Source: Verrucomicrobiota bacterium (GTDB taxonomy: Bacteria > Verrucomicrobiota > Verrucomicrobiia > Verrucomicrobiales > DEV007). Taken from it: a stretch of 64,000 nt of DNA. A model generated the notes under the pieces. It saw only the letters and a list, made by a program, of their open reading frames with translations. It did not search any database and was not told the origin of the DNA. The stretch spans positions 1 to 64,000 of the forward strand of contig JASFYY010000095.1 of NCBI GenBank assembly GCA_045046875.1, given 5' to 3'. Position numbers and translations under genes: made by a program. Each line of letters opens with the position of its first letter. Position 1 is the first letter of the stretch. This document shows, piece after piece, positions 50,713 to 64,000 of this stretch.

Positions 50713-51696
50713 ATGACCGAACCCGATAGCGCCACCTCTGACAGTCCCCGTCAGAAACAAACGCCCTACCGTGACGCCCGCTCAACTTACTCACAAGTTC
50801 TCCTGATACTCTACGTGCTTGCTTGGCCTGTCGTCATCCTGACGGCTCCGTTGTTCTGGCTATACAGCCCCCTGGCGGGCATCCTCTACGCCCTCACCCT
50901 CGGCCTTCATATTAATACCCAACTCGGCCTTTTTTATCATGAGTTGTGGCACAACGGCTTTTTCAAAAGCCCCCGACGCAATCGTTCTTTCTTTTGGCTC
51001 ATCTCCTTCTACCTCATCTCTAGCCCCCAATTTTACGGCATCGCCCATGCCACTCACCACAAGGAAGTGCACACCTTCGATGACTTGGAATTCTGGCCAG
51101 CCAAAAAAGTCCGCAGCAAGTTGCGCGCCCGCATAGCCCTTGTTTTTGAATTATTTTTCGGCATCATCGCCTGGCAAGTGCGGGTCGCTCCCGCAATTTA
51201 CCAACACAAAAACTACAGCCGCCGAACCAGTGTGCTCTTCACCGGTGGCTGGATCATCATGTTCGCCGGACTGATGTCTGTTTCCCATCTGCTCTACGGT
51301 GAGTTTTTCTGGTACGCCGCCCTCGCCTACGGATTACACCTACTGCTCTTCGCCATTGCGCTACGCTTGTTACAATTTCTCGAACATCTGGGCATCACGG
51401 CTCCTGACCTCGATTACACAACCCGCGCCAATCTCACCCGCAATACCCGACGCCAGGGACTGCTCAACCAGATTTGGCACAAACTCACCCTCAACGAAAC
51501 CGCTGAGCACACTCTCCACCACCTCCGCGCAGGCATTCCCTACCGCAGGTACATGCCCCTGCCGCCTCCTCCCCCCTCAGCTCCCGTGCGCCCCGTTTCC
51601 GTAGTCGACCTACCGCGCATCATCTGGAGCTATTGGCAGAATCCCCTGCGCGAGATCAGCTCCACATCACCCGATCTCGATGAAATCCCTCGCTGA
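50713..51696 (+). CDS. Membrane fatty acid desaturase family protein
   Basis: His boxes HELWH, HATHH, HTLHH plus TM segments. Confidence 0.85.
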   Translation: MTEPDSATSDSPRQKQTPYRDARSTYSQVLLILYVLAWPVVILTAPLFWLYSPLAGILYALTLGLHINTQLGLFYHELWHNGFFKSPRRNRSFFWLISFYLISSPQFYGIAHATHHKEVHTFDDLEFWPAKKVRSKLRARIALVFELFFGIIAWQVRVAPAIYQHKNYSRRTSVLFTGGWIIMFAGLMSVSHLLYGEFFWYAALAYGLHLLLFAIALRLLQFLEHLGITAPDLDYTTRANLTRNTRRQGLLNQIWHKLTLNETAEHTLHHLRAGIPYRRYMPLPPPPPSAPVRPVSVVDLPRIIWSYWQNPLREISSTSPDLDEIPR

Positions 51697-51736: not shown

Positions 51737-53170
51737 CTAACCAGTAAACAAATACCAGAACTGGGCCACAAAAAAACAAATCACCAATCCCATCACCACC
51801 GGAAGCAAAGCAGCAACCGTCGTCCACTTCAGACTACCGGTTTCTTTGTAAATAGTAAAAATGGTTGTGGAACAAGGGTTGTGAACCAAGCTGAACAACA
51901 TCAAATTTATCGCCGTCAACAGAGTCCAACCTCCTGCCGCAAAGACCTTCAGATAAGCCTCGTCGTCGGTCAGCTCAAACATCACTCCGCTGCCTTCTCC
52001 CACCCCTGATATTTTTGCGCTGAGAATGGTCAGCATCAAAATGGTGGGGATGACAATTTCGTTCGCCGGTATGGCAATGATATACGCCAATAGAATGACC
52101 CCGTTCAAGCCGATCAACAGAGCAAAAGGGTTCATCCCATTGATCAAATGCTCGGCAATGCTCAAGTCACCCAGCGTCACATTTGCCAACAACCAGATGG
52201 CAGCGCCCGCCGGAACCGCAAACACAACCGCACGCCACAGCACCAACAAGGTCCGGTCTATAATCGAAGTATAAAGGGTCTTCCAAAATCTCGGCGGGCG
52301 ATAAGGCGGCAACTCCAGACTGAATGTCGAAGGCTGCCCACGAAGAACGGTGCGTGACAGGCCCCAGGAAGTGACAAAAGTTAAAAAGACTCCAATCAAG
52401 GTGATCCCCACCACCGCAGCAGCCGAAACCAAACCCGCAATCGCCGGAGGTGCCATGGCTCCGATAAATAACGAAGCAATCAAAATCTGGGTAGGCCAAC
52501 GCCCGTTGCACAGCGCAAAATTATTAGTGATAATGGCGATCAAGCGTTCCCGCGGACTGTCGATCACCCGGGTGGCAATGATGCCGGCAGCGTTGCAACC
52601 GTAACCCATACTCATCGACAGTGCCTGCTTGCCATGCGCACCCGCCTTACGAAACATGTTGTCCAAATTAAAAGCCACCCGGGGCAAATATCCAAAGTCT
52701 TCCAACAAAGTGAATAACGGGAAAAATATCGCCATCGGCGGCAGCATCACCGCGACCACCCAGGCGGCAGCCAGATACACACCATCAATCAACAAGCCGT
52801 CCAACCACCACGGCATATGCATGCCCGCCGCCACCCCTTTCAAAAACGGATGCCCCATATCAATCAACAAACTAGCCAACATAGCGGAAGGCACGTTCGC
52901 CCCGGCAATCGTCAGCCAGAAAACCACTGCCAAAATCAACAACATCACTGGAAAACCCGTCCAGCGGCTGGTCAGCAATCGATCCAAATTACGCTCCCAG
53001 TCAAATCGCGTGTGTTCGCCCTCACGAGTCACCACCCGATCCGCGATACGGGTAGCATCCGCGTATATGGATTCCATTAAAGTTTCGTGCAGATTTCCAC
53101 CCACTTCCCAGCGCAAGGCGTTAGCACTTTCCAGGATCTCATCCACATTGTTGTGATTTTCCTCATCCAT
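51737..53170 (-). CDS. feoB: FeoB membrane (gate) domain protein, C-terminal half of a split FeoB
   Basis: LEDFGYLPRVAF, GKQAL-GYGCNA, ELPPYRPP, PANE, PCSTT. Confidence 0.88.
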   Translation of the reverse strand: MDEENHNNVDEILESANALRWEVGGNLHETLMESIYADATRIADRVVTREGEHTRFDWERNLDRLLTSRWTGFPVMLLILAVVFWLTIAGANVPSAMLASLLIDMGHPFLKGVAAGMHMPWWLDGLLIDGVYLAAAWVVAVMLPPMAIFFPLFTLLEDFGYLPRVAFNLDNMFRKAGAHGKQALSMSMGYGCNAAGIIATRVIDSPRERLIAIITNNFALCNGRWPTQILIASLFIGAMAPPAIAGLVSAAAVVGITLIGVFLTFVTSWGLSRTVLRGQPSTFSLELPPYRPPRFWKTLYTSIIDRTLLVLWRAVVFAVPAGAAIWLLANVTLGDLSIAEHLINGMNPFALLIGLNGVILLAYIIAIPANEIVIPTILMLTILSAKISGVGEGSGVMFELTDDEAYLKVFAAGGWTLLTAINLMLFSLVHNPCSTTIFTIYKETGSLKWTTVAALLPVVMGLVICFFVAQFWYLFTG

Positions 53171-53229
53171 GTCTCAAAAATTTCTTATTCTACAAACTCA
53201 AAATCTGCCCCGGCCAATCCCGGCAATCA

Positions 53230-54048
53230 TCACATCGCAGCCATCAGGTTTTGATTTTTGTCCTCGCGATCCAAATCTTCCAACTCACCGTCACGCAACG
53301 CTTCAATAATCCGCTGATCCCCTTCCATTATCCGCAAAGCCACCCAACGAGGATTTGGCAATCGAGGAAATTGTTGCTCGATCTTTTCAATCAATTGGTT
53401 CAGCGCACGATTGAGCTTCGTCGATCCACTCTTGATCCGATAAGGCCGGCACACCGTTTGACCACTTGCCACCTCATTGATCGCCTGTAACAATTGCTCT
53501 ATCCCTTCCCCCGAACGCGCTGAAGTCGCCACCACGGGTATGCCCAACTCTTTAGCCAACAAGCGCTCATCAACCGTTACATGATGCCTGCTCGCCTCAT
53601 CCACCAGATTCAAACACAACACCGCGCGATCAGTGATCTCCAACACCTGCAAAGCCAGATTCAAATTGCGTTCCAGGCGACTGGCATCCACCACTATCAC
53701 GGTGACGTCCGGACGGCCAAATAAAATAAAATTGCGCGCCACCTCCTCGTCGGTGCTGGTGGACAAAAGCGAATACGTCCCCGGCAGATCAATCATCTTG
53801 TAACGCTTATCTCCGTATTGATAGCCCCCCTCAGCGCGGGTCACCGTTTTGCCGGGCCAATTACCCGTATGCTGCCGCAAACCCGTCAGGGCATTAAAAA
53901 CCGTACTCTTGCCCGTATTGGGATTGCCCGCCAAAGCGACCACATAATCAAAGTTGTCCATTTTGATCCCCATCCGGATCAAATTACCCGCATGATGAGA
54001 TGGACAAGTATCGCAAGGACTGGCGCTCTCGTTTTTTTCGTTTTTCAT
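53230..54048 (-). CDS. feoB: FeoB small GTPase domain protein, N-terminal half of a split FeoB
   Basis: GNPNTGKS, GNWPGKTV, DLPGTYS, VDA-LERNL, NLVD. Confidence 0.9.
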   Translation of the reverse strand: MKNEKNESASPCDTCPSHHAGNLIRMGIKMDNFDYVVALAGNPNTGKSTVFNALTGLRQHTGNWPGKTVTRAEGGYQYGDKRYKMIDLPGTYSLLSTSTDEEVARNFILFGRPDVTVIVVDASRLERNLNLALQVLEITDRAVLCLNLVDEASRHHVTVDERLLAKELGIPVVATSARSGEGIEQLLQAINEVASGQTVCRPYRIKSGSTKLNRALNQLIEKIEQQFPRLPNPRWVALRIMEGDQRIIEALRDGELEDLDREDKNQNLMAAM

Positions 54049-55058
54049 TTTTCCACTAAAATCAAATCCGCCTGACTTTTCCTCAACGCAATGATAGCGC
54101 CCCTTATTTCATACGCAGTAGGATCACCTGCCGCACTGCTCATTTCTGCTTTTATACGAGTGCCTGATATGACACCCAGATCCATCAAACGACGACGCTG
54201 CACTCCGCGACAGGCCCTGGATATAGAGACCACCGAAGCGCTTTCCCCCGGAGCCAGCTGCGATAGTTTTGGGTAACTCGATTCTTCAGATTTTTTTTCT
54301 GCCAAAGCCAATACGGTCACATTAACCGCAAATACCGGAGCCAAGGATTGCTCCTCCCCATCCAAAGCAAAACGAACCCTCACCGGACTGCAATCGAGGA
54401 TGTGGATGTGTTTGCCCACATCAAATCCCTGAGCCACTAATTGAGCAAAAATTTCCTCTGGTTCATCTTCGATATGAATGACTTCAGCCGTTTGCCCTTT
54501 TTGCAAATCAGTCATCGGCATTCCCAGCGAAGGAGGCAATTCCCCGCGCGCCGTAGGAATCGGATCCCCATGGGGGTCATATAGCGGATTGCCAAGCTGG
54601 GCCGCCAGGACATTGGCTTCACCAAAGGTCATTTTATGCTCCTGTTGTTCAGCCTCCGCATGCCATTCCGGAGCCGGCACCCCGGTTTCGTCAGCCAGGT
54701 ATCGCTCCCACACCCGGTGAATCCGAATAATACGCAAGGCATACGAGCGCCCTTCATCCGTCAATTGCAGCGTATTGCCCTGCGATTTCACCAAGTCCAG
54801 AGCTTCGAGCCGCGTCAATAATTCAATCGCACGCCCCGCACTGATAGAGAGCCCGCCGGAAAGGCTCTGCAAAGTACAAGGCAACTGTTTGTATTCCCCA
54901 TCATACAAATATTTCAAAGCGTTCTCGATCAAAGCCCGCCCGGTGTTTTGCCAGGCACGTCGCCATTGCCATAGATAGCCCTTATGAGGACGAAAAAACA
55001 AATACAAAGCCAACAATAAAGCGAACCCTATCAGCAAGGTTGTCAAAGGGGATAACAT
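54045..55058 (-). CDS. Membrane-anchored DtxR/MntR-like protein fused to two FeoA domains
   Basis: N-terminal TM helix; LT-EG-IIR-HR-WE-YL, AEQQEH, DPHGDPIP; two SH3-like repeats ending RRLMDLG-GDPTAY-IRG-IALR. Confidence 0.85.
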   Translation of the reverse strand: MLSPLTTLLIGFALLLALYLFFRPHKGYLWQWRRAWQNTGRALIENALKYLYDGEYKQLPCTLQSLSGGLSISAGRAIELLTRLEALDLVKSQGNTLQLTDEGRSYALRIIRIHRVWERYLADETGVPAPEWHAEAEQQEHKMTFGEANVLAAQLGNPLYDPHGDPIPTARGELPPSLGMPMTDLQKGQTAEVIHIEDEPEEIFAQLVAQGFDVGKHIHILDCSPVRVRFALDGEEQSLAPVFAVNVTVLALAEKKSEESSYPKLSQLAPGESASVVSISRACRGVQRRRLMDLGVISGTRIKAEMSSAAGDPTAYEIRGAIIALRKSQADLILVEK

Positions 55059-55083
55059 ATCAGCCTACCCCCCTGCTGTAATT

Positions 55084-55156
55084 AATTTTGTTCACGAATA
55101 CAAATTAGGCTGACCTAACATACTTATGCAAGAGAAATTTTTAGCCGAAGACCGAA
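55084..55156. promoter_or_regulatory. DtxR/MntR-type operator(s) in the divergent promoter
   Basis: TTAGG-CTGA-CCTAA palindrome at 55105-55118; adjacent TTTGT...ACAAA imperfect palindrome at 55084-55106. Confidence 0.65.
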
Positions 55157-55168
55157 ACATGCGCTAGA

Positions 55169-55699
55169 ATGACAACCATCTTGGACCCTATGAGCCCATC
55201 AAAACCTACAGCCAGCGGAAAAAAATCGCCTTCATCCAAATCCACAAAATCTACAGGATCATCGAAACCGGCTCGCAATCAAACGCGTGCGGTTGAAGAT
55301 TATTTGGAGCAAATTTACAATCTGATTGAAGACAAAGGTTACGCCCGGGTGATCGACATTGCTCAAAACCTGGGCCTCGCCCAGGCCAGCGTCACCAACA
55401 TGATCCAGCGCCTCGACAGTGAAGGATACATCATTTACGAAAAATACCGCGGCCTCACCCTCACTGACAGTGGACGCAAAGTCGGCGAAGCCATCACCCG
55501 CCGCCACCAACTGCTGACCCGCCTGTTGCGCCACTTTAATCTGGACGAAGACACCATCTACGAAGACGTCGAAGGCATGGAGCATCACATCAGCCGCCCC
55601 ACCCTCGAAGTCATCAGCGCCCTCTGCGAAGAACTCGAAAGCAGTCCGGCACTGCTCAAACGACTAAAAAAACGCATCAAAGAGCACGGGAAAGGGTGA
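55169..55699 (+). CDS. mntR: MntR/DtxR family metal-dependent regulator
   Basis: EDYLEQIY, ARV-DIA-L-ASVT-M-RL, YEKYRG-LT, DVEGMEHH. Confidence 0.88.
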   Translation: MTTILDPMSPSKPTASGKKSPSSKSTKSTGSSKPARNQTRAVEDYLEQIYNLIEDKGYARVIDIAQNLGLAQASVTNMIQRLDSEGYIIYEKYRGLTLTDSGRKVGEAITRRHQLLTRLLRHFNLDEDTIYEDVEGMEHHISRPTLEVISALCEELESSPALLKRLKKRIKEHGKG

Positions 55700-57943: not shown

Positions 57944-58861
57944 CTAAAGTTTTCGTTCAGGGGGTGGCGGATTCGCGGTATCTGACGACTTTGATGCAAG
58001 CTGGAGACCTTCGTTTACTTGTGGTTTGCGCCAAAGAAAAAAAAGATACAGAGGGATCATGAAATGCGGAGCACGAAGAATGACTTCGTGAATGTAATGA
58101 TCAGCACCCCAGTAGTTCAAGCTCATCGACATCCCCGCAACGGGTCTGGCAAGGGCCGCCAGAAACCCCCAAACGGCCGCATAGAGCATGCAAGGGCGAC
58201 GCCATAAGGGTATAAAAATACCAATGCAGACAACAAAATCGAGAGTCCCAACGACATGAAGAAAAATCCGAACCGTATCATGCTCCACCTGAAGGATCAC
58301 AGATGTCATGCCATAAAAAATCGCAGGCGTCGGCCAATGATAACCAAAAGCATATAAACCATGGCCGGCAAAGGTCATGATCAATGCCGCCATAGCGGTC
58401 CTCACCGTAACCCGGTGGCGGACTCCAAAAACAAGTGCCATCACCAGGATGATAGGAATGAGCATCTGCCCGCCATGCTCGATGAACATGGGGAATTGAC
58501 TCTGAATAGCGAGATATTTGGCATAAGCCAAAACCATGAGCAAAACACTGCCACCGATAAGAGCCGCCATCTGCAAATGTGATTTATGACGAACCGTGAG
58601 ACTCAAAATGCTACAAGCCAGGTAGAGCCATGCTATTCGGTGGATCCACTTCTGAATCAAACCATCATTCGCCCCCGTGCCGACAAATTCCTCCCAACTG
58701 ATCCCGAATCGTTCGACCCATGCATAAGTAGTATCCTGCCAGAGAAGAATGCCATAGGGTCCCTGCCAGTAGAAGTGCACCCAAGTCCAGCCAGCGAAGC
58801 AAAAAAATGCTCCCAGACGGAGACAGAGCAGCAGAATTCGATCAAGCTTCGTTTGAGTCAT
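57944..58861 (-). CDS. Hypothetical polytopic membrane protein
   Basis: About 7 hydrophobic segments; EHGGQ, TFAGHGLYA, RAPH motifs. Confidence 0.7.
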   Translation of the reverse strand: MTQTKLDRILLLCLRLGAFFCFAGWTWVHFYWQGPYGILLWQDTTYAWVERFGISWEEFVGTGANDGLIQKWIHRIAWLYLACSILSLTVRHKSHLQMAALIGGSVLLMVLAYAKYLAIQSQFPMFIEHGGQMLIPIILVMALVFGVRHRVTVRTAMAALIMTFAGHGLYAFGYHWPTPAIFYGMTSVILQVEHDTVRIFLHVVGTLDFVVCIGIFIPLWRRPCMLYAAVWGFLAALARPVAGMSMSLNYWGADHYIHEVILRAPHFMIPLYLFFLWRKPQVNEGLQLASKSSDTANPPPPERKL

Positions 58862-59099
58862 AGTGAATCGGTGAGGCAGCTACCGCCTACGGCACCACCT
58901 CCCTCTACCATAGCGAAAATCTCGCCCGATCCACTGATTTCTGCGCCGCAATCATGCCCATTGAGAGCAATAAAACAGACAAGGCTAAATAAAATGATGA
59001 CGATGAAAAAGTGTTCGTGGCTTCATCGCTATATCAAAAACTAAGCTATAGAATATTACTGATGTGAACAGAAAAATTTAAAAAACTTGAGTGATATTC

Positions 59100-60146
59100 T
59101 CAAAGTCGGGCAAAATCAAAATAAAATGGTCGTTTCACCTTTGGCGGGTCGCCAAAAAATCCGACGAGAAAATGGCCTGCCGTTACTTGCTTGGAACTCA
59201 ACCCATCCAAAGCCGCCGTCAAAGGGTCCTCAATATCCAAGCCCAGCCCATACAAGCCTCTTGTCTCCAGCACTCCTGCCAACAAGGCTTTGAATATTTT
59301 TGGATCCCTATTTTTACACAACAAGGTCGTCAATGCTTTTGATGAAATACACTCGCCAATCGCGGGTAAACGTGGCCTCCCTCCCAACTCCGCCCACACA
59401 TTATAAAAAGGACGCGCAAGGCGCACCCCTCGACCATAACCTGTGATTCGGGTACGGTTAATTGAACTTGTATCCCAAATTCCAAGCATGCCAATCAACT
59501 CCCCCCCTTGCTCGGCCAACCTGAAGTCTACTCCCCCCATGGCAGCGATATCCACCCAGGGAGTAAAACTGGCACTACCAGCCTCCCTTTCCAACAAACT
59601 TTGCATGGCCACCCGGTCTTCAATCCCAGCACTTCTTACTTTAATCGCCTCAGTCGTCCCGTTCACCTTCTGTGACTGAAGGAACCAGGATCTATAAATC
59701 CCACAAGGATGATACACCGGCAAACCTGCCCGCCCGCTCGTTAGATACTTACTCCCTTCCCGATTATCCTCAAGCACCAAGGTTTGAGCCCATTCCCCTT
59801 CGTCAAATACCTGTTGTTTTAAGGTTTTAAAACCGCGCGCAAGCAGCATTCCCTTCCGATACTCCTGCCTAATTCTCAGATCAGATAAATAACGAATTTT
59901 TTTCACCTCTCCATCAACAAATACCGAACGCTTCCCCGCAGAAAAAACTCCCACAGCTCGGCCTGAACCTTTCTCAAAGGCAGCCCACACTTCCGGCTCA
60001 TCAGCCTGCAAATAACAGCTAGCAAAAAAATCATCCCCTCGCTCCTGACATATCTGAATGCCTTGCCCCATCGGGGTCTCGCGCATTAACGCGCACAATG
60101 CCTGCGAATCGGACAACTCTGCTTTTCTGTAAACTAACTCTCCCAT
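59100..60146 (-). CDS. GNAT-fold acyltransferase-like protein
   Basis: YRKAE-D-AL N-terminus, YLSDLRIRQEYRKG-LA motif-A-like segment, second VRSA-D repeat; overlaps GH3 gene by 13 nt. Confidence 0.65.
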   Translation of the reverse strand: MGELVYRKAELSDSQALCALMRETPMGQGIQICQERGDDFFASCYLQADEPEVWAAFEKGSGRAVGVFSAGKRSVFVDGEVKKIRYLSDLRIRQEYRKGMLLARGFKTLKQQVFDEGEWAQTLVLEDNREGSKYLTSGRAGLPVYHPCGIYRSWFLQSQKVNGTTEAIKVRSAGIEDRVAMQSLLEREAGSASFTPWVDIAAMGGVDFRLAEQGGELIGMLGIWDTSSINRTRITGYGRGVRLARPFYNVWAELGGRPRLPAIGECISSKALTTLLCKNRDPKIFKALLAGVLETRGLYGLGLDIEDPLTAALDGLSSKQVTAGHFLVGFFGDPPKVKRPFYFDFARL

Positions 60147-61489
60147 AATGCTGAAAGCTCTCCTCGCTCTATAACCGGCAGCTTCACATCTCCCTCTCTC
60201 GAAAACCGTTTATTCGCCAAATAACGTGCCGCTTCTGATGCCCAGCCTCTTGGCAAAGATCTGAGTAAACATCTATCAAGCTGCGCTGTGTCCAAAGCCT
60301 TGGAAAAGTGTAAATTTCTTCTCAGTTCGGCAAGTACGTCCGCCCCCCTGTCTGTGACCCATATTTCATACGCTCGTTGATCTTCCCTCACCCTGATAAA
60401 ACCCGAAACCCCGGCTTTCCTAAAGGCTTCTACCACATGCTCCCCATCCAGTTTTTCTCCAACCAAATCCGAACAATCTCCTCTCCTACCAACAAAACCC
60501 ACCCTACCTCCATCTCCCGCTTCAATGATATCTCCCGTCCTATAGCGGTATAAACCCGCCCCTGTTGTCAACACTACCTCATACCGCCGCCCCTGTTTCA
60601 CCTCCAAACTTACATCCCCCGTTTCACAATCAATGAACTCATGGAAATGCACCCCTCTAGCGATCCTCGCCGCCGACCCATCAGGAATACTTGTAACTCC
60701 CTCTGTAGCCAACAAACCTTTCGGCTCAAACACCACGCCCTCTCCCAATCGCTCGAGCACCTGCGCTTTCCACATCGCAGCCTGAGCATCCGCCCAACAA
60801 CTGAGCACCCGCAATTCCGGCCAGATTTCCCGCCACGTCGCCCGCGTATCCAGTGCTTCATCAAGCTTTAAAAAAAAGACCGGACTCCATACCGAAATCG
60901 AGCGCAAATTTGATGTTGTTAATAAAACTTTTGCCGTCTGCTCAAAAAAATCACTCTCCCCAAATTCAGGAGCCACCAGCCACTTAGCCAAACCATAACT
61001 CACCTCATCCGGGAAATACGCCCCATCATTCGTAAAGCCCAAAGGCAAACCCGACGAAGTCTTCTCACCCTTGCCCAATCTTGGTGACAACGACCAATAC
61101 GCCGCACCCTCAAAAACTTCAGGATAGCGCTGTTGCCATCCTTTCATCCAAATTGACAGGGCGCAGGCCAATTCACCTCGAAACTTCGGGGTTACAGGAA
61201 TCACCTTCACCGCACTCGAAGTCCCTGATGTGAGTTCAAACCCAACAGGCTCTTCTTTAGTAAGCACTGCAACCTCCCCATTAATCGCCCGCTCAACCCA
61301 GGGTTCTATATCCATGTAACTCTGCAAAGGCACCTTGTTCGCAAAGTCTTCATAACTTGTGATATCAGCAAAACCATACTCTCGTCCAAAAGCCGACCCA
61401 ACGTTGGACTGTATATAGCGGCTCAGCAAATCACATGATCTCGTTTCATACCCTCCCAACGATTCAAGTAACGTTTGACCCTCATGCAT
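60134..61489 (-). CDS. GH3 auxin-responsive-promoter family (acyl acid-amido synthetase-like) protein
   Basis: F-VPLQSY, TSGTS-K-IP, GLLATEG, YEVVLTT-GLYRYRTGD, FVGR, GEKL. Confidence 0.88.
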   Translation of the reverse strand: MHEGQTLLESLGGYETRSCDLLSRYIQSNVGSAFGREYGFADITSYEDFANKVPLQSYMDIEPWVERAINGEVAVLTKEEPVGFELTSGTSSAVKVIPVTPKFRGELACALSIWMKGWQQRYPEVFEGAAYWSLSPRLGKGEKTSSGLPLGFTNDGAYFPDEVSYGLAKWLVAPEFGESDFFEQTAKVLLTTSNLRSISVWSPVFFLKLDEALDTRATWREIWPELRVLSCWADAQAAMWKAQVLERLGEGVVFEPKGLLATEGVTSIPDGSAARIARGVHFHEFIDCETGDVSLEVKQGRRYEVVLTTGAGLYRYRTGDIIEAGDGGRVGFVGRRGDCSDLVGEKLDGEHVVEAFRKAGVSGFIRVREDQRAYEIWVTDRGADVLAELRRNLHFSKALDTAQLDRCLLRSLPRGWASEAARYLANKRFSREGDVKLPVIERGELSALWES

Positions 61490-62213
61490 TGATACACACC
61501 CTGTTTAAACCTAACTCAAATCCATTCAAAGCTACACGTTTCAAATTATCCGTATCCATCTCCGTCAAACAAACCAACTCATCCCCAGCTGCAAAACCAG
61601 GATTCTTTTCGATAAAATAACGAACCATTGTTTTCTCTCTACGTTGCCAGGTTGCCTCCACCAGTTCAGGTTTCAGTTGCCCCAATGATTCCGTGAAATG
61701 AATGACTCCCCTATCCTTAAACCAGGCATTGCCAAATAAATGCCGCGACGCCGTGTCCACGACCTCTGACAACACAATTTCCTGATTTTTAGGATGCGGA
61801 AAAAATCGCTTGGCGAACAATGGCAAAAAAAGAAAAGTCCGATGCCCTTTTGATATCAGCATCCAAAACAGTCTCCTCCCACTGCTTGCCCTCCACTCCC
61901 CCGCTCTCTCACAAAACGCCCTCACCAATTCGTTACTTCCCCAATAAGCCGGGTCAATAATGGTATCTCCTGAAAACAGAACATCTCCCGATGAAATCCA
62001 TAGCCCCTTTGGGTTGAACGCCAAGGTAGTAAATCCTTGCAACTCCCCACTGTCATCCAGCAACAAAATCACTTCATCTTTCCAAGACAAATCTTCTGCA
62101 AAAACCTCGTGGCTCACATGATCATACGCTGCTGAGAAAAGCTTGAACATTCGCTCTTGCAGGATGGCAGACAAGTGCCTCACCGGGATGATTTTTGACT
62201 TTAAAACGTTCAT
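61482..62213 (-). CDS. GNAT-like hypothetical protein
   Basis: F-EDL-K, LQGFTT, FSGDTIIDPAYWG, WMLISKGHRT, NPGF-GDEL-CL; overlaps neighbours by 8 and 4 nt. Confidence 0.65.
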   Translation of the reverse strand: MNVLKSKIIPVRHLSAILQERMFKLFSAAYDHVSHEVFAEDLSWKDEVILLLDDSGELQGFTTLAFNPKGLWISSGDVLFSGDTIIDPAYWGSNELVRAFCERAGEWRASSGRRLFWMLISKGHRTFLFLPLFAKRFFPHPKNQEIVLSEVVDTASRHLFGNAWFKDRGVIHFTESLGQLKPELVEATWQRREKTMVRYFIEKNPGFAAGDELVCLTEMDTDNLKRVALNGFELGLNRVCINA

Positions 62214-62779
62214 CTGATCGCGGACATTAACAAATAAAAAAAGCCTATTGCCTGAGGAAACAAGATGCCCGCCGTGGAGTAATTGATCGACCTGTAGCCG
62301 TCACCTCCAGGCACAAAATACACCCCTTTCCCTGGCCCTCCGGTAGCCTTCACAAACCACCTCACGAACAGCAACTCACTGATTAAAGAAACGATTGTCA
62401 GCGTACCCCACACCTTCAAACCAGGAACAGCAAAACCATACATCACGACCAACACCAATCCGATGTGAAACAAATCGTGCAAGACCCCATAGGCAACCCG
62501 CCAGCGTCTCGTCAAACACAGAGGGATTTCCACCAGAACTCGCAGCCCCATGGAAACAGCCAATACCACAAACGCCGTGCCCTCCCTTAATAAAACCAGG
62601 GGTAAAACTACCCAAAGCATCAACACATACGCAAACCAAGCCGCTTTGATCGGCGATATTTTACCTCCCCTTCGTTCACCGTGATTTTGAAATGCCCACA
62701 CCCCACACGCAAAAACAACCGTCCCTACCATCAGGAACAAGGCTTCACCGCGTGTAAGCATTTCGACCGCTTCTTTCAT
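62210..62779 (-). CDS. Hypothetical membrane protein
   Basis: About 6 hydrophobic segments; QN-GG-IS-K, YGVLHD; 4-nt overlaps on both sides. Confidence 0.7.
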   Translation of the reverse strand: MKEAVEMLTRGEALFLMVGTVVFACGVWAFQNHGERRGGKISPIKAAWFAYVLMLWVVLPLVLLREGTAFVVLAVSMGLRVLVEIPLCLTRRWRVAYGVLHDLFHIGLVLVVMYGFAVPGLKVWGTLTIVSLISELLFVRWFVKATGGPGKGVYFVPGGDGYRSINYSTAGILFPQAIGFFYLLMSAIR

Positions 62780-63774
62780 ACTTTTATTTTTTTTATTGTC
62801 GGCGGCTCGTTTTCTAGAGATTCCCCATCAAGCAAACGGCGGATCCCCTTGGCAATTGCGTCCGTCTCATAATAAAGGAATCCAGCCCCCTCCGTCCTTG
62901 AGATATCCTCTGTCTGTTCGCGTATGACACTTACATCTTGATTCAAAATATAGTGTGCAATCGGTTCAAAAAGCGCCCTGATCAATGCTCCCAAAGGCTC
63001 AAAACGGTAAGCCATGTAGGTGTAAATCTGCGTTTCCGTTTCGGAGATCGGAGTGCACTGGCTCATCACAATGTATTGACGGCTTTCAGTCATACGGTAA
63101 TCAACCCGGGTAAGATAAGGCAGCTGAAAATGATCGGTATGAATCACCTTCTCGCCGCTCGGCACCAGAATACGACCAATAAGGGAATCCATCCGTTGCT
63201 CGTTAATGAACTCCGCCTGAATCCAGTCCTCCCCCGACGTGATTTCTACCTCCACCTCTTTTGATTCCTTACCGCGAAACAATCCTCTGTGCACGTGAGC
63301 CGTATGAGGCACATCCAAAAAATTCTCGACGCAGTGAAAAGCATTACCCTCAAAATATCGCTCCATTGACCAATGATGCCAACCCTGCTCATCAAATTTG
63401 GGGAAATCGATTGGCTCATCAAGCGCTTCGCCACTGCCCATCCAAATCCAGATAAAACCCTGTTTTTCTATCACCGCATAAGCTTTCACCTGAAACTGTT
63501 GATACGTCTCACACGATTCACACGAAGAGGGAATGTCCGCACAATGCCCATCCGCAGCCCATGCCCAGCCGTGATAAGAACAGCGCAAACCATCCTCCGT
63601 CACTTCCCCCCGTGACAATGCCATATTGCGATGCAAACACCGGTCCCGCAGACAGCCCGCATTTCCTTCCTTATCCCGAAAAATCACCACTGAATCCCCC
63701 ACGATCATTCTCGCTAGCGGCTGCTTTTTCAACTGCTTTGATCGGCAGGCGATATACCAGTGATCCTTCAACAC
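62776..63774 (-). CDS. Rieske non-heme iron oxygenase alpha subunit (VanA/KshA-like)
   Basis: Rieske CLH...CSYH; mononuclear Fe site ENFLDVPHTAHVH and NQD; GTG start with AAGGAGG RBS. Confidence 0.92.
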   Translation of the reverse strand: MLKDHWYIACRSKQLKKQPLARMIVGDSVVIFRDKEGNAGCLRDRCLHRNMALSRGEVTEDGLRCSYHGWAWAADGHCADIPSSCESCETYQQFQVKAYAVIEKQGFIWIWMGSGEALDEPIDFPKFDEQGWHHWSMERYFEGNAFHCVENFLDVPHTAHVHRGLFRGKESKEVEVEITSGEDWIQAEFINEQRMDSLIGRILVPSGEKVIHTDHFQLPYLTRVDYRMTESRQYIVMSQCTPISETETQIYTYMAYRFEPLGALIRALFEPIAHYILNQDVSVIREQTEDISRTEGAGFLYYETDAIAKGIRRLLDGESLENEPPTIKKIKV

Positions 63775-63822
63775 GGCGAAACCTCCTTCCCCTTTTCCTG
63801 TCGTTTTCTGATTCTCATTTCA

Positions 63823-64000
63823 TCACCGTATTTTCGAAACCTCCTGCTCAATCCTGATATATTTCCCCGTCTCAAAATGCCCTTTCGACTTGCTGCCATC
63901 CGGCCACTGCACCCGCACCTCTACCTCATCCACATCATCTGTCGCAAACAATAATCTACGCCCCTGTTGCGCCGAAAACCCAGAAACATTGTTCACCCAC
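63823..64000 (-). CDS. 3' end of a CRTAC1-family / ASPIC-UnbV domain protein (partial; absent from ORF track)
   Basis: Frame from 63999 reads WVNNVSGFSAQQGRRLLFATDDVDEVEVRVQWPDGSKSKGHFETGKYIRIEQEVSKIR*; GF-AQ..R-L-F...V-V-WP-G is the ASPIC/UnbV pattern. Confidence 0.7.
   Translation of the reverse strand, partial: WVNNVSGFSAQQGRRLLFATDDVDEVEVRVQWPDGSKSKGHFETGKYIRIEQEVSKIR

Follow-up and report, generated by a model that had tools for sequence, protein, structure and literature searches.

The island and its limits

The window analysed here comprised positions 1–64000 of contig JASFYY010000095.1 (C95, 75,510 bp) from a Verrucomicrobiota genome (G000; 5.59 Mb, 95% complete). Its edge cut through an island of 10,266 bp (C95:58977-69242) with nine genes, all on the minus strand. 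The closest named homologs were from Verrucomicrobiales. The genes were labelled A to I in reading order along the island, and D, E, F, G, H and I lay partly or wholly in the window. The features, by position, were as follows.

58977..64000, minus-strand genes: window part of the island; the remainder of D plus C, B and A continue to C95:69242
59100..60146, minus strand: I, 348 aa, tandem GNAT with the N-myristoyltransferase/Eis fold, predicted amine N-acyltransferase
60134..61489, minus strand: H, 451 aa, GH3-family adenylating enzyme, predicted amide synthetase
61482..62213, minus strand: G, 243 aa, single GNAT fold, likely partner of H
62210..62779, minus strand: F, 189 aa, membrane protein of an unnamed family, likely partner of D
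62776..63774, minus strand: E, 332 aa, VanA-type Rieske oxygenase
C95:63823-66486 (3' end in the window, 63823..64000), minus strand: D, 887 aa, RnfD-like E5 domain, extra transmembrane helix, E4-type FG-GAP propeller and UnbV domain
C95:66583-67428, minus strand: desaturase C, DesA/delta-9-like, FA_desaturase
C95:67438-68514, minus strand: desaturase B, FA_desaturase
C95:68486-68959, minus strand: A, 157 aa, small hydrophobic membrane protein without a family

The open reading frames (ORFs) of E, F, G, H and I overlapped by 4, 4, 8 and 13 nt, and D ended 48 nt upstream of the start of E, in agreement with the five complete overlapping genes and the upstream end of an UnbV gene reported in a preliminary description of the window. 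Besides A to I, the island contained no further callable gene. Among the nine genes, ORF calls and Pfam gave no reductase, ferredoxin, carrier protein, nonribosomal peptide synthetase (NRPS), polyketide synthase (PKS), other exporter or regulator, and no uptake or ring-cleavage gene was present in the island. The window edge had thus concealed neither a reductase nor a carrier, an exporter or a regulator. The earlier remarks that no reductase or carrier was visible and that the system was independent of NRPS and PKS therefore extend to the whole island, while the operon, then seen cut at the edge, proved to be a unit of nine genes with two desaturases.

In a congener (G305), 94 other bases occupied the position of the island. 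The DNA alignment of the two genomes stopped at C95:58976 (98.5%) and resumed at 69243 (98.8%), and the genes flanking the island were adjacent in G305, with proteins 97% and 99% identical. A contig joint omitting the identical 10,266 bp was also found in public runs X1 and X2, with sides of only 41 and 45 letters. Close variants of the whole island were covered in 30 of 30 bins in all four public runs, from three studies; one of these runs may be the source sample of the window. The GC content at third codon positions of the nine island genes was 0.41–0.56, while 2,101 long ORFs had a median of 0.58; all nine were below this median and seven were below the lower quartile. H was found in none of the five congeners searched, and D and G in none of four. 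The island was likely gained in G000; alternatively, it may have been lost in G305. No repeats marking the island ends were among the repeats listed, and the counts of promoters (13 vs 13.8) and terminators (14 vs 13.4) were no higher than in shuffles. No RNA data set was listed as holding the sequence. The island formed by the nine genes is discrete, with sharp limits and wide conservation.

Predicted functions of the island proteins

H matched the Pfam family GH3 (PF03321; E 8e-30, 104.5 bits against a cut-off of 23.6) and GH3_M (E 1e-10), and plant GH3 structures with E 1e-12. The three nucleotide-binding motifs described in PMC12493201 were found as TSGTSSAVK, LATEG (divergent from YGSSE) and GLYRYRTGD, and the invariant C-terminal lysine was K436. 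H was approximately 70 residues shorter than most homologs; the versions at loci L002, L005 and L059 were likewise short, so the shortness does not indicate a broken gene. From its sequence, H is predicted to be an ATP-dependent amide synthetase. The preliminary description had regarded bacterial GH3 proteins as largely uncharacterised, to which there is one exception: OlsH of Singulisphaera acidiphila, which converts ATP, a fatty acid and ornithine to N-acyl ornithine according to the available text of PMC12493201. The OlsH-OlsI system resembles the island in having a bacterial GH3 with the three nucleotide-binding motifs and an acyltransferase in its operon, and is a model for the predicted amide chemistry of H. 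H is not OlsH, however, as it reached 37.7 bits on the OlsH model, where the cut-off is 620. While OlsI is an alpha/beta-hydrolase, none was present among the nine island genes, which contain two GNATs instead. Beyond OlsH-OlsI, the island adds oxidases and an E5-E4 fusion, and its distribution is patchy.

The earlier expectation that the genes at 59100 (I) and 61482 (G) encode GNAT folds was borne out by structure models. G had a weak Pfam match (Acetyltransf_1, E 0.02). Its model had a predicted local distance difference test (pLDDT) score of 94.7, and the matches listed by Foldseek and VIA were GNAT-fold acyltransferases. In VIA, LasI ranked first (Z 12.6; root-mean-square deviation (rmsd) 3.1, 165 residues aligned) but tied with NatD (12.3) and histone acetyltransferases (11.7–11.9), and FeeM reached 10.9, giving no clear lead to the AHL synthase/FeeM subfamily. 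Residues D83, K122, E212 and C215 were present in 121 of 121 G sequences. Twelve longer matches to G comprised six G-GH3 fusions with G at the N-terminus, four cupin fusions, one VanA_C and one Lnb fusion. The G-GH3 fusions were mutually 27–49% identical, and G is likely a partner of H. The Cupin/JmjC domain joined to G in P0243, P0244, P0245 and P0247 is a further oxidase option for the core.

I had no Pfam match and modelled as two GNAT domains in one chain (pLDDT 91). The best Foldseek match was human N-myristoyltransferase (NMT) NMT1 (E 2e-12). VIA gave Z 20.1 for both MAB_4324 and yeast NMT (the latter with rmsd 4.2 over 296 aligned residues), while identity to NMT/Eis-type structures was 8–16% and other tandem GNATs tied for first place. 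Residue 348, the C-terminus of I, aligned with the C-termini of NMT and Eis, and in 29 of 29 homologs the chain stopped four residues past a glutamate (26), aspartate (2) or asparagine (1). In NMT and Eis, the buried C-terminal carboxylate serves as catalytic base and the acceptor is an amine. The fixed end of the I chain would fit such a catalytic carboxylate and an amine acceptor, and I is predicted to be an amine N-acyltransferase. PDB sequence searches with profiles of G, I and F gave nothing significant.

The motifs of the Rieske oxygenase E (Pfam Rieske, E 5e-21; VanA_C, E 3e-15) were complete, with CxH..CxxH for the [2Fe-2S] cluster and DxxHxxxxH for the mononuclear iron. B and C were both FA_desaturase proteins with three His boxes each. 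No family was assigned to A by library scans.

D contained the UnbV_ASPIC domain noted earlier, but the gene turned out to encode a much larger RnfD-FG-GAP fusion of the enediyne E5-E4 type (Pfam NQR2_RnfD, FG-GAP and UnbV_ASPIC). RnfD and FG-GAP occurred together in 119 of the best 120 homologs, at no less than 46% identity. The D profile matched RnfD structures (E 3.6e-9), C-1027 E4 (E 6e-57) and C-1027 E5 (E 7e-30). The two C-1027 proteins, annotated CRTAC1 and RnfD-like, sit between DUF1702 and the PKS and were thus taken as E4 and E5; the cassette order is E3/E4/E5/E/E10 in the available part of PMC5181780. E3, E4 and E5 have been termed 'unique enediyne biosynthesis proteins' (PMC10760148) and 'genes of unknown function' (PMC9992847). 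The propeller motifs H-x3-W, [YF]KGM and AxDFG of D were common to three of three E4 proteins, and the first two were absent from seven of seven other FG-GAP proteins. The propeller contained an invariant His, Lys, Asp and Trp. H628 and H718 were also invariant in D but not kept in E4. An iron site of four histidines, like that of carotenoid oxygenases, is only an idea, given that E4 lacks these two residues.

In Clostridium tetanomorphum RnfD, riboflavin is located on the cytoplasmic side, flanked by Asn124 and Asp248, and Thr153 carries the covalent flavin mononucleotide (FMN) (PMC9588780, available sections). In the hidden Markov model (HMM) alignment, the riboflavin pair corresponded to N118 and D218 of D in 35 of 35 sequences, whereas the FMN threonine (position 138) was replaced by Ala (27) or Ser (8) and never retained. 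An RnfD-like subunit of the Nqr/Rnf kind without this threonine keeps an apparent non-covalent flavin site, as far as described in the accessible text of PMC10979944. Unlike RnfD/NqrB, D is joined to a propeller rather than an NAD-binding domain, and other Rnf subunits were absent from the island. A rough topology estimate from hydropathy and charge gave ten RnfD-like helices plus an eleventh, with the propeller outside the cytoplasm. The invariant propeller residues and the retained riboflavin pair would suit D as an enzyme. F had no Pfam or PDB match. Its family contained 385 representatives; among 139 sequences, R80 and W93 were present in all, E84 in 137 and H101 in 133. F was joined to a full-length D in P0335 (one of 150 listed) and is likely a partner of D.

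D shares homology and motifs with the enediyne cassette (C-1027, L108; PMC5181780 and PMC10760148, as available), but it fuses E5 and E4 in reverse order and travels with G-H-I, and E3 and the enediyne PKS were not found. For E3 (DUF1702), two tblastn queries matched neither G000 (95% complete) nor any of 96 related loci, while positive controls matched; this absence rests on tblastn, as the separate Pfam search was run without a positive control. No enediyne type I PKS was found beside D-type genes, with one ketosynthase-sized match (L069) in the 96 loci. Type I PKS matches in G000 were partial, reached at most 176 bits (control 740) and were located on two other contigs, from which a PKS may be supplied in trans. 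A single acyl carrier protein (ACP) query had no match in the 96 loci. Concerning E10, Pfam gave no thioesterase family among the nine genes, and no dedicated E10 query was made.

Two further enediyne-related loci were noted. A Serratia proteamaculans plasmid (NZ_MT039191, L109:1457-16326) carried E3, E4 and E5 homologs (DUF1702, VCBS and RnfD-like) with a discrete ACP, two ketosynthases, a glycosyltransferase and a histidine methyltransferase, but no enediyne type I PKS. Sinorhizobium meliloti T073 pSymA (L112:8250-18369) carried an apparently full enediyne-type cassette, made up of E3, E4, E5, a 1911-aa PKS and a short ORF resembling a thioesterase.

Distribution of the core and its add-ons

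Metagenomes were scanned with a D alignment, and 77 loci were taken (from the best 80 of 423 confirmed stretches), giving 78 loci with L002. Neighbours of D were E (43), G (37), H (37), I (36) and F (17), with many loci located on short contigs. Twenty-four loci extended 5 kb or more to either side of D, and among these E was found at 20, H at 20, G at 19, I at 19 and F at 7, a recurrence beyond chance; dereplication at 70% identity left 13 loci (E 9, H 9, G 8, I 8 and F 5). Gene order was thus conserved in unrelated genomes. In a survey of 401 genomes of the order, in which two (D) and six (G) candidates were scored per genome, D was present in 16 and G in 23. The D set was wholly inside the G set (16/16) and seven genomes had G only; D appears to depend on G. 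An order-wide D profile search was positive in 15 of 400 other genomes, and a class-wide search with D found it in none of 300 others (E 1e-100). A search of genome contigs with H alone gave one locus. Where D was solitary at its locus, G and H were each found elsewhere in the genome in four of four cases (four of five D genomes examined further). In G402 and G412, E-F-G-H-I formed a contiguous block away from D.

The reverse arrangement was also observed. Burkholderia arboris (L097) contained G, H and I without a nearby D, with a Rieske gene and desaturases present, and G309 contained a G-H cluster with a Rieske gene and no D found in the genome. In Acinetobacter baumannii (NZ_CP064203, L110:9102-16781), G-H-I was interspersed with HlyD, MFS and outer-membrane efflux genes and preceded by LuxR and amidase genes; this is the minimal form of the core. 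A mobilizable Citrobacter portucalensis plasmid (NZ_CP134684, L098:14196-26291) carried G-H-I with five radical SAM genes, PAP2, SnoaL and a desaturase, and no nearby D. In Azospirillum brasilense Sp7 (L111:9656-10804), a G homolog was found without an H or I match within 10 kb, and eight Azospirillum records carried a G homolog.

Accessory genes at the 78 D loci were of the lipid type: desaturase (25), fatty-acid hydroxylase (14), SnoaL (12), MATE (10), P450 (9), AurF (7), PAP2 (6), MFS (5), B12 radical SAM (4) and MMPL (3), with an LPG-synthase-type gene at some loci. The profile of A had matches at 19 loci, but it lumps small membrane proteins together, and A was not counted as conserved. 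Because G-H-I recurs without D and the accessory genes vary, we consider G-H-I to be the core, with D, E, F and the oxidases as tailoring options. Of the earlier view that the whole set is one coupled unit, the conserved neighbourhood stands, but the conserved core is G-H-I alone and D, E and F are add-ons. The core marks out a large family of gene clusters whose tailoring genes are interchangeable, and named cultured bacteria are among its carriers. E5-E4 fusions are frequent outside enediyne clusters and tied to this GH3-GNAT core.

Proposed pathway and rival explanations

Starting from what the analysis shows, namely the limits and gene content of the island, the protein folds, the conserved positions, the fusions and the co-occurrence patterns, we hypothesized that the island encodes a PKS- and NRPS-free route to a desaturated, oxidised fatty-acyl amide of the amino-lipid type. 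This product class and the core/add-on layout are jointly somewhat favoured over everything else considered. The oxidised N-acyl amide suggested previously is consistent with the gene content, its class remaining an inference. In the proposed route, I would take a long-chain acyl group of the host off CoA or ACP and attach it to an amine, with its buried C-terminal carboxylate as base, and H would adenylate a carboxylate with ATP and, with G, form a second amide. Cys215 of G may briefly carry the acyl group, replacing a carrier protein. B, C and E would introduce double bonds or hydroxyl groups into the chain, drawing electrons from host ferredoxins. The RnfD-like domain of D would bind flavin non-covalently and pass electrons to or from an active site in the periplasmic propeller, such that F-D would act as a membrane redox tailoring module performing the last step on the outward-facing side of the membrane. 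The order of these steps is a guess and probably wrong in some part.

Several observations weigh against this proposal. D was alone at 3 of the 13 dereplicated metagenome loci, judged from the locus itself, and the genomes surveyed are kin rather than independent, hence 16 of 16 overstates the association of D with G. G501 had D, E, F, G and I, yet no H was found genome-wide, although its D and B look broken. In Acinetobacter, G-H-I was flanked by efflux genes with no oxidase match nearby, and a homolog of desaturase C was found at 1 of the 78 D loci only. Flavin binding by D and its periplasmic topology rest on the HMM alignment and the hydropathy/charge profile. Three generic FG-GAP paralogs (157–212 bits) outscored C-1027 E4 (149 bits) on the D profile; kinship with E4 therefore rests on the motifs and the E5 partner. 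Finally, both GH3 and GNAT folds work on a wide range of acids and amines.

The preliminary description had assigned the membrane and UnbV proteins to export or display. The same amide pathway could indeed operate with F-D as a unit for export, anchoring or display without chemistry, in line with approximately 11 predicted transmembrane helices and a predicted extracytoplasmic propeller in D, the lack of another exporter in the G000 island, the lack of D alongside a tripartite efflux pump in Acinetobacter, and the loss of the covalent FMN threonine. However, MATE, MFS and MMPL exporters already occur at D loci, the invariant propeller residues and the riboflavin pair suit an enzyme, and loss of the threonine is compatible with a retained flavin site in a known RnfD-like subunit (PMC10979944, accessible text). 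We regard this weaker reading as unlikely; F-D is likely a membrane redox tailoring enzyme rather than an exporter, judging from the conserved flavin-site and putative active-site residues of D. D could alternatively be the missing reductase, delivering membrane electrons to the Rieske oxygenase and desaturases. The island has neither reductase nor ferredoxin, E was present at 20 of the 24 well-flanked D loci, E4/E5 adjoin DUF1702 in C-1027 and Serratia, and the riboflavin of RnfD faces the cytoplasm (PMC9588780, available sections). Rieske-containing G-H clusters without D nearby (L097) or with none found in the genome (G309), and a conserved propeller predicted to point away from E, make this rather improbable.

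It is also quite unlikely that the island acts on an existing part of the envelope (membrane lipid, glycan or protein amine) instead of producing a free compound. A, D and F are membrane proteins, B and C are membrane desaturases, I resembles protein or peptide N-acyltransferases, and PAP2 and LPG-synthase-type genes occur at some loci; on the other hand, frequent exporters and tailoring genes (radical SAM, AurF, P450) swapped around a fixed core have the look of secondary metabolism, and the distribution is patchy, with G not found in the four congeners searched. VanA-type Rieske oxygenases often serve catabolism and plant GH3s conjugate hormones to inactivate them, which, with the amidase and LuxR genes preceding the Acinetobacter cluster, would suit a catabolic or detoxifying island that oxidises and conjugates an external aromatic or lipid acid. 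This appears very unlikely, as the island has no uptake, ring-cleavage or regulator gene and the enediyne E4/E5 belong to a biosynthetic cassette (PMC5181780, available part).

Within the amino-lipid proposal, D as the E5-E4 half of the enediyne core machinery, freed from PKS and E3, might install alkynes or halogens on the fatty-acyl chain, with membrane desaturases or AurF-type diiron enzymes replacing E3. The enediyne cassette is reported to yield iodinated polyynes. Polyyne and alkyne clusters (JamABC, caryoynencin) contain several membrane desaturases and an adenylating enzyme, a fatty acyl-AMP ligase, with an ACP. The island likewise would tailor fatty acids with several membrane desaturases and an adenylating enzyme, but no fatty acyl-AMP ligase or ACP was present among the nine genes, which have GH3 and two GNATs instead. 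The alkyne/halogen reading is speculative and has a small chance of being correct; if true, it would mean a widespread unseen class of polyyne/haloalkyne amino-lipids and a single-chain model for the function of E4 and E5. Either way, D is a one-chain, PKS-free system in which a flavoprotein role of E5 and an enzymatic role of E4 can be tested, and the 10-kb island, with limits known to the base, can be expressed whole.

No description of this cluster, and no match to a characterised pathway, was among the papers listed from the literature searched, in which subscription journals were thinly covered and supplements (OlsH and enediyne papers) fell outside the search. With the same thin journal coverage, nothing was found linking enediyne, RnfD and electron transfer, or GH3, radical SAM, desaturase and an acyl adenylate natural product. 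The pavettamine cluster was checked and, to the extent of its available description, is unrelated. The island would operate as a GH3 amino-lipid pathway distinct from OlsH-OlsI. Its E5-E4 is borrowed, yet the locus is no enediyne cluster.

Outside the island, the window contained an additional membrane desaturase (50713-51696). The neighbouring region (51737-55699) contained what we take, from the translations, to be a split FeoB, with a GTPase ORF (53230-54048) and a membrane ORF (51737-53170), followed by a presumed DtxR/FeoA-type fusion (54045-55058) and presumably a second DtxR-type regulator (55169-55699). A 305-aa membrane protein without a Pfam family (57944-58861) adjoined a PhoD-like gene and was found in two of five congeners.

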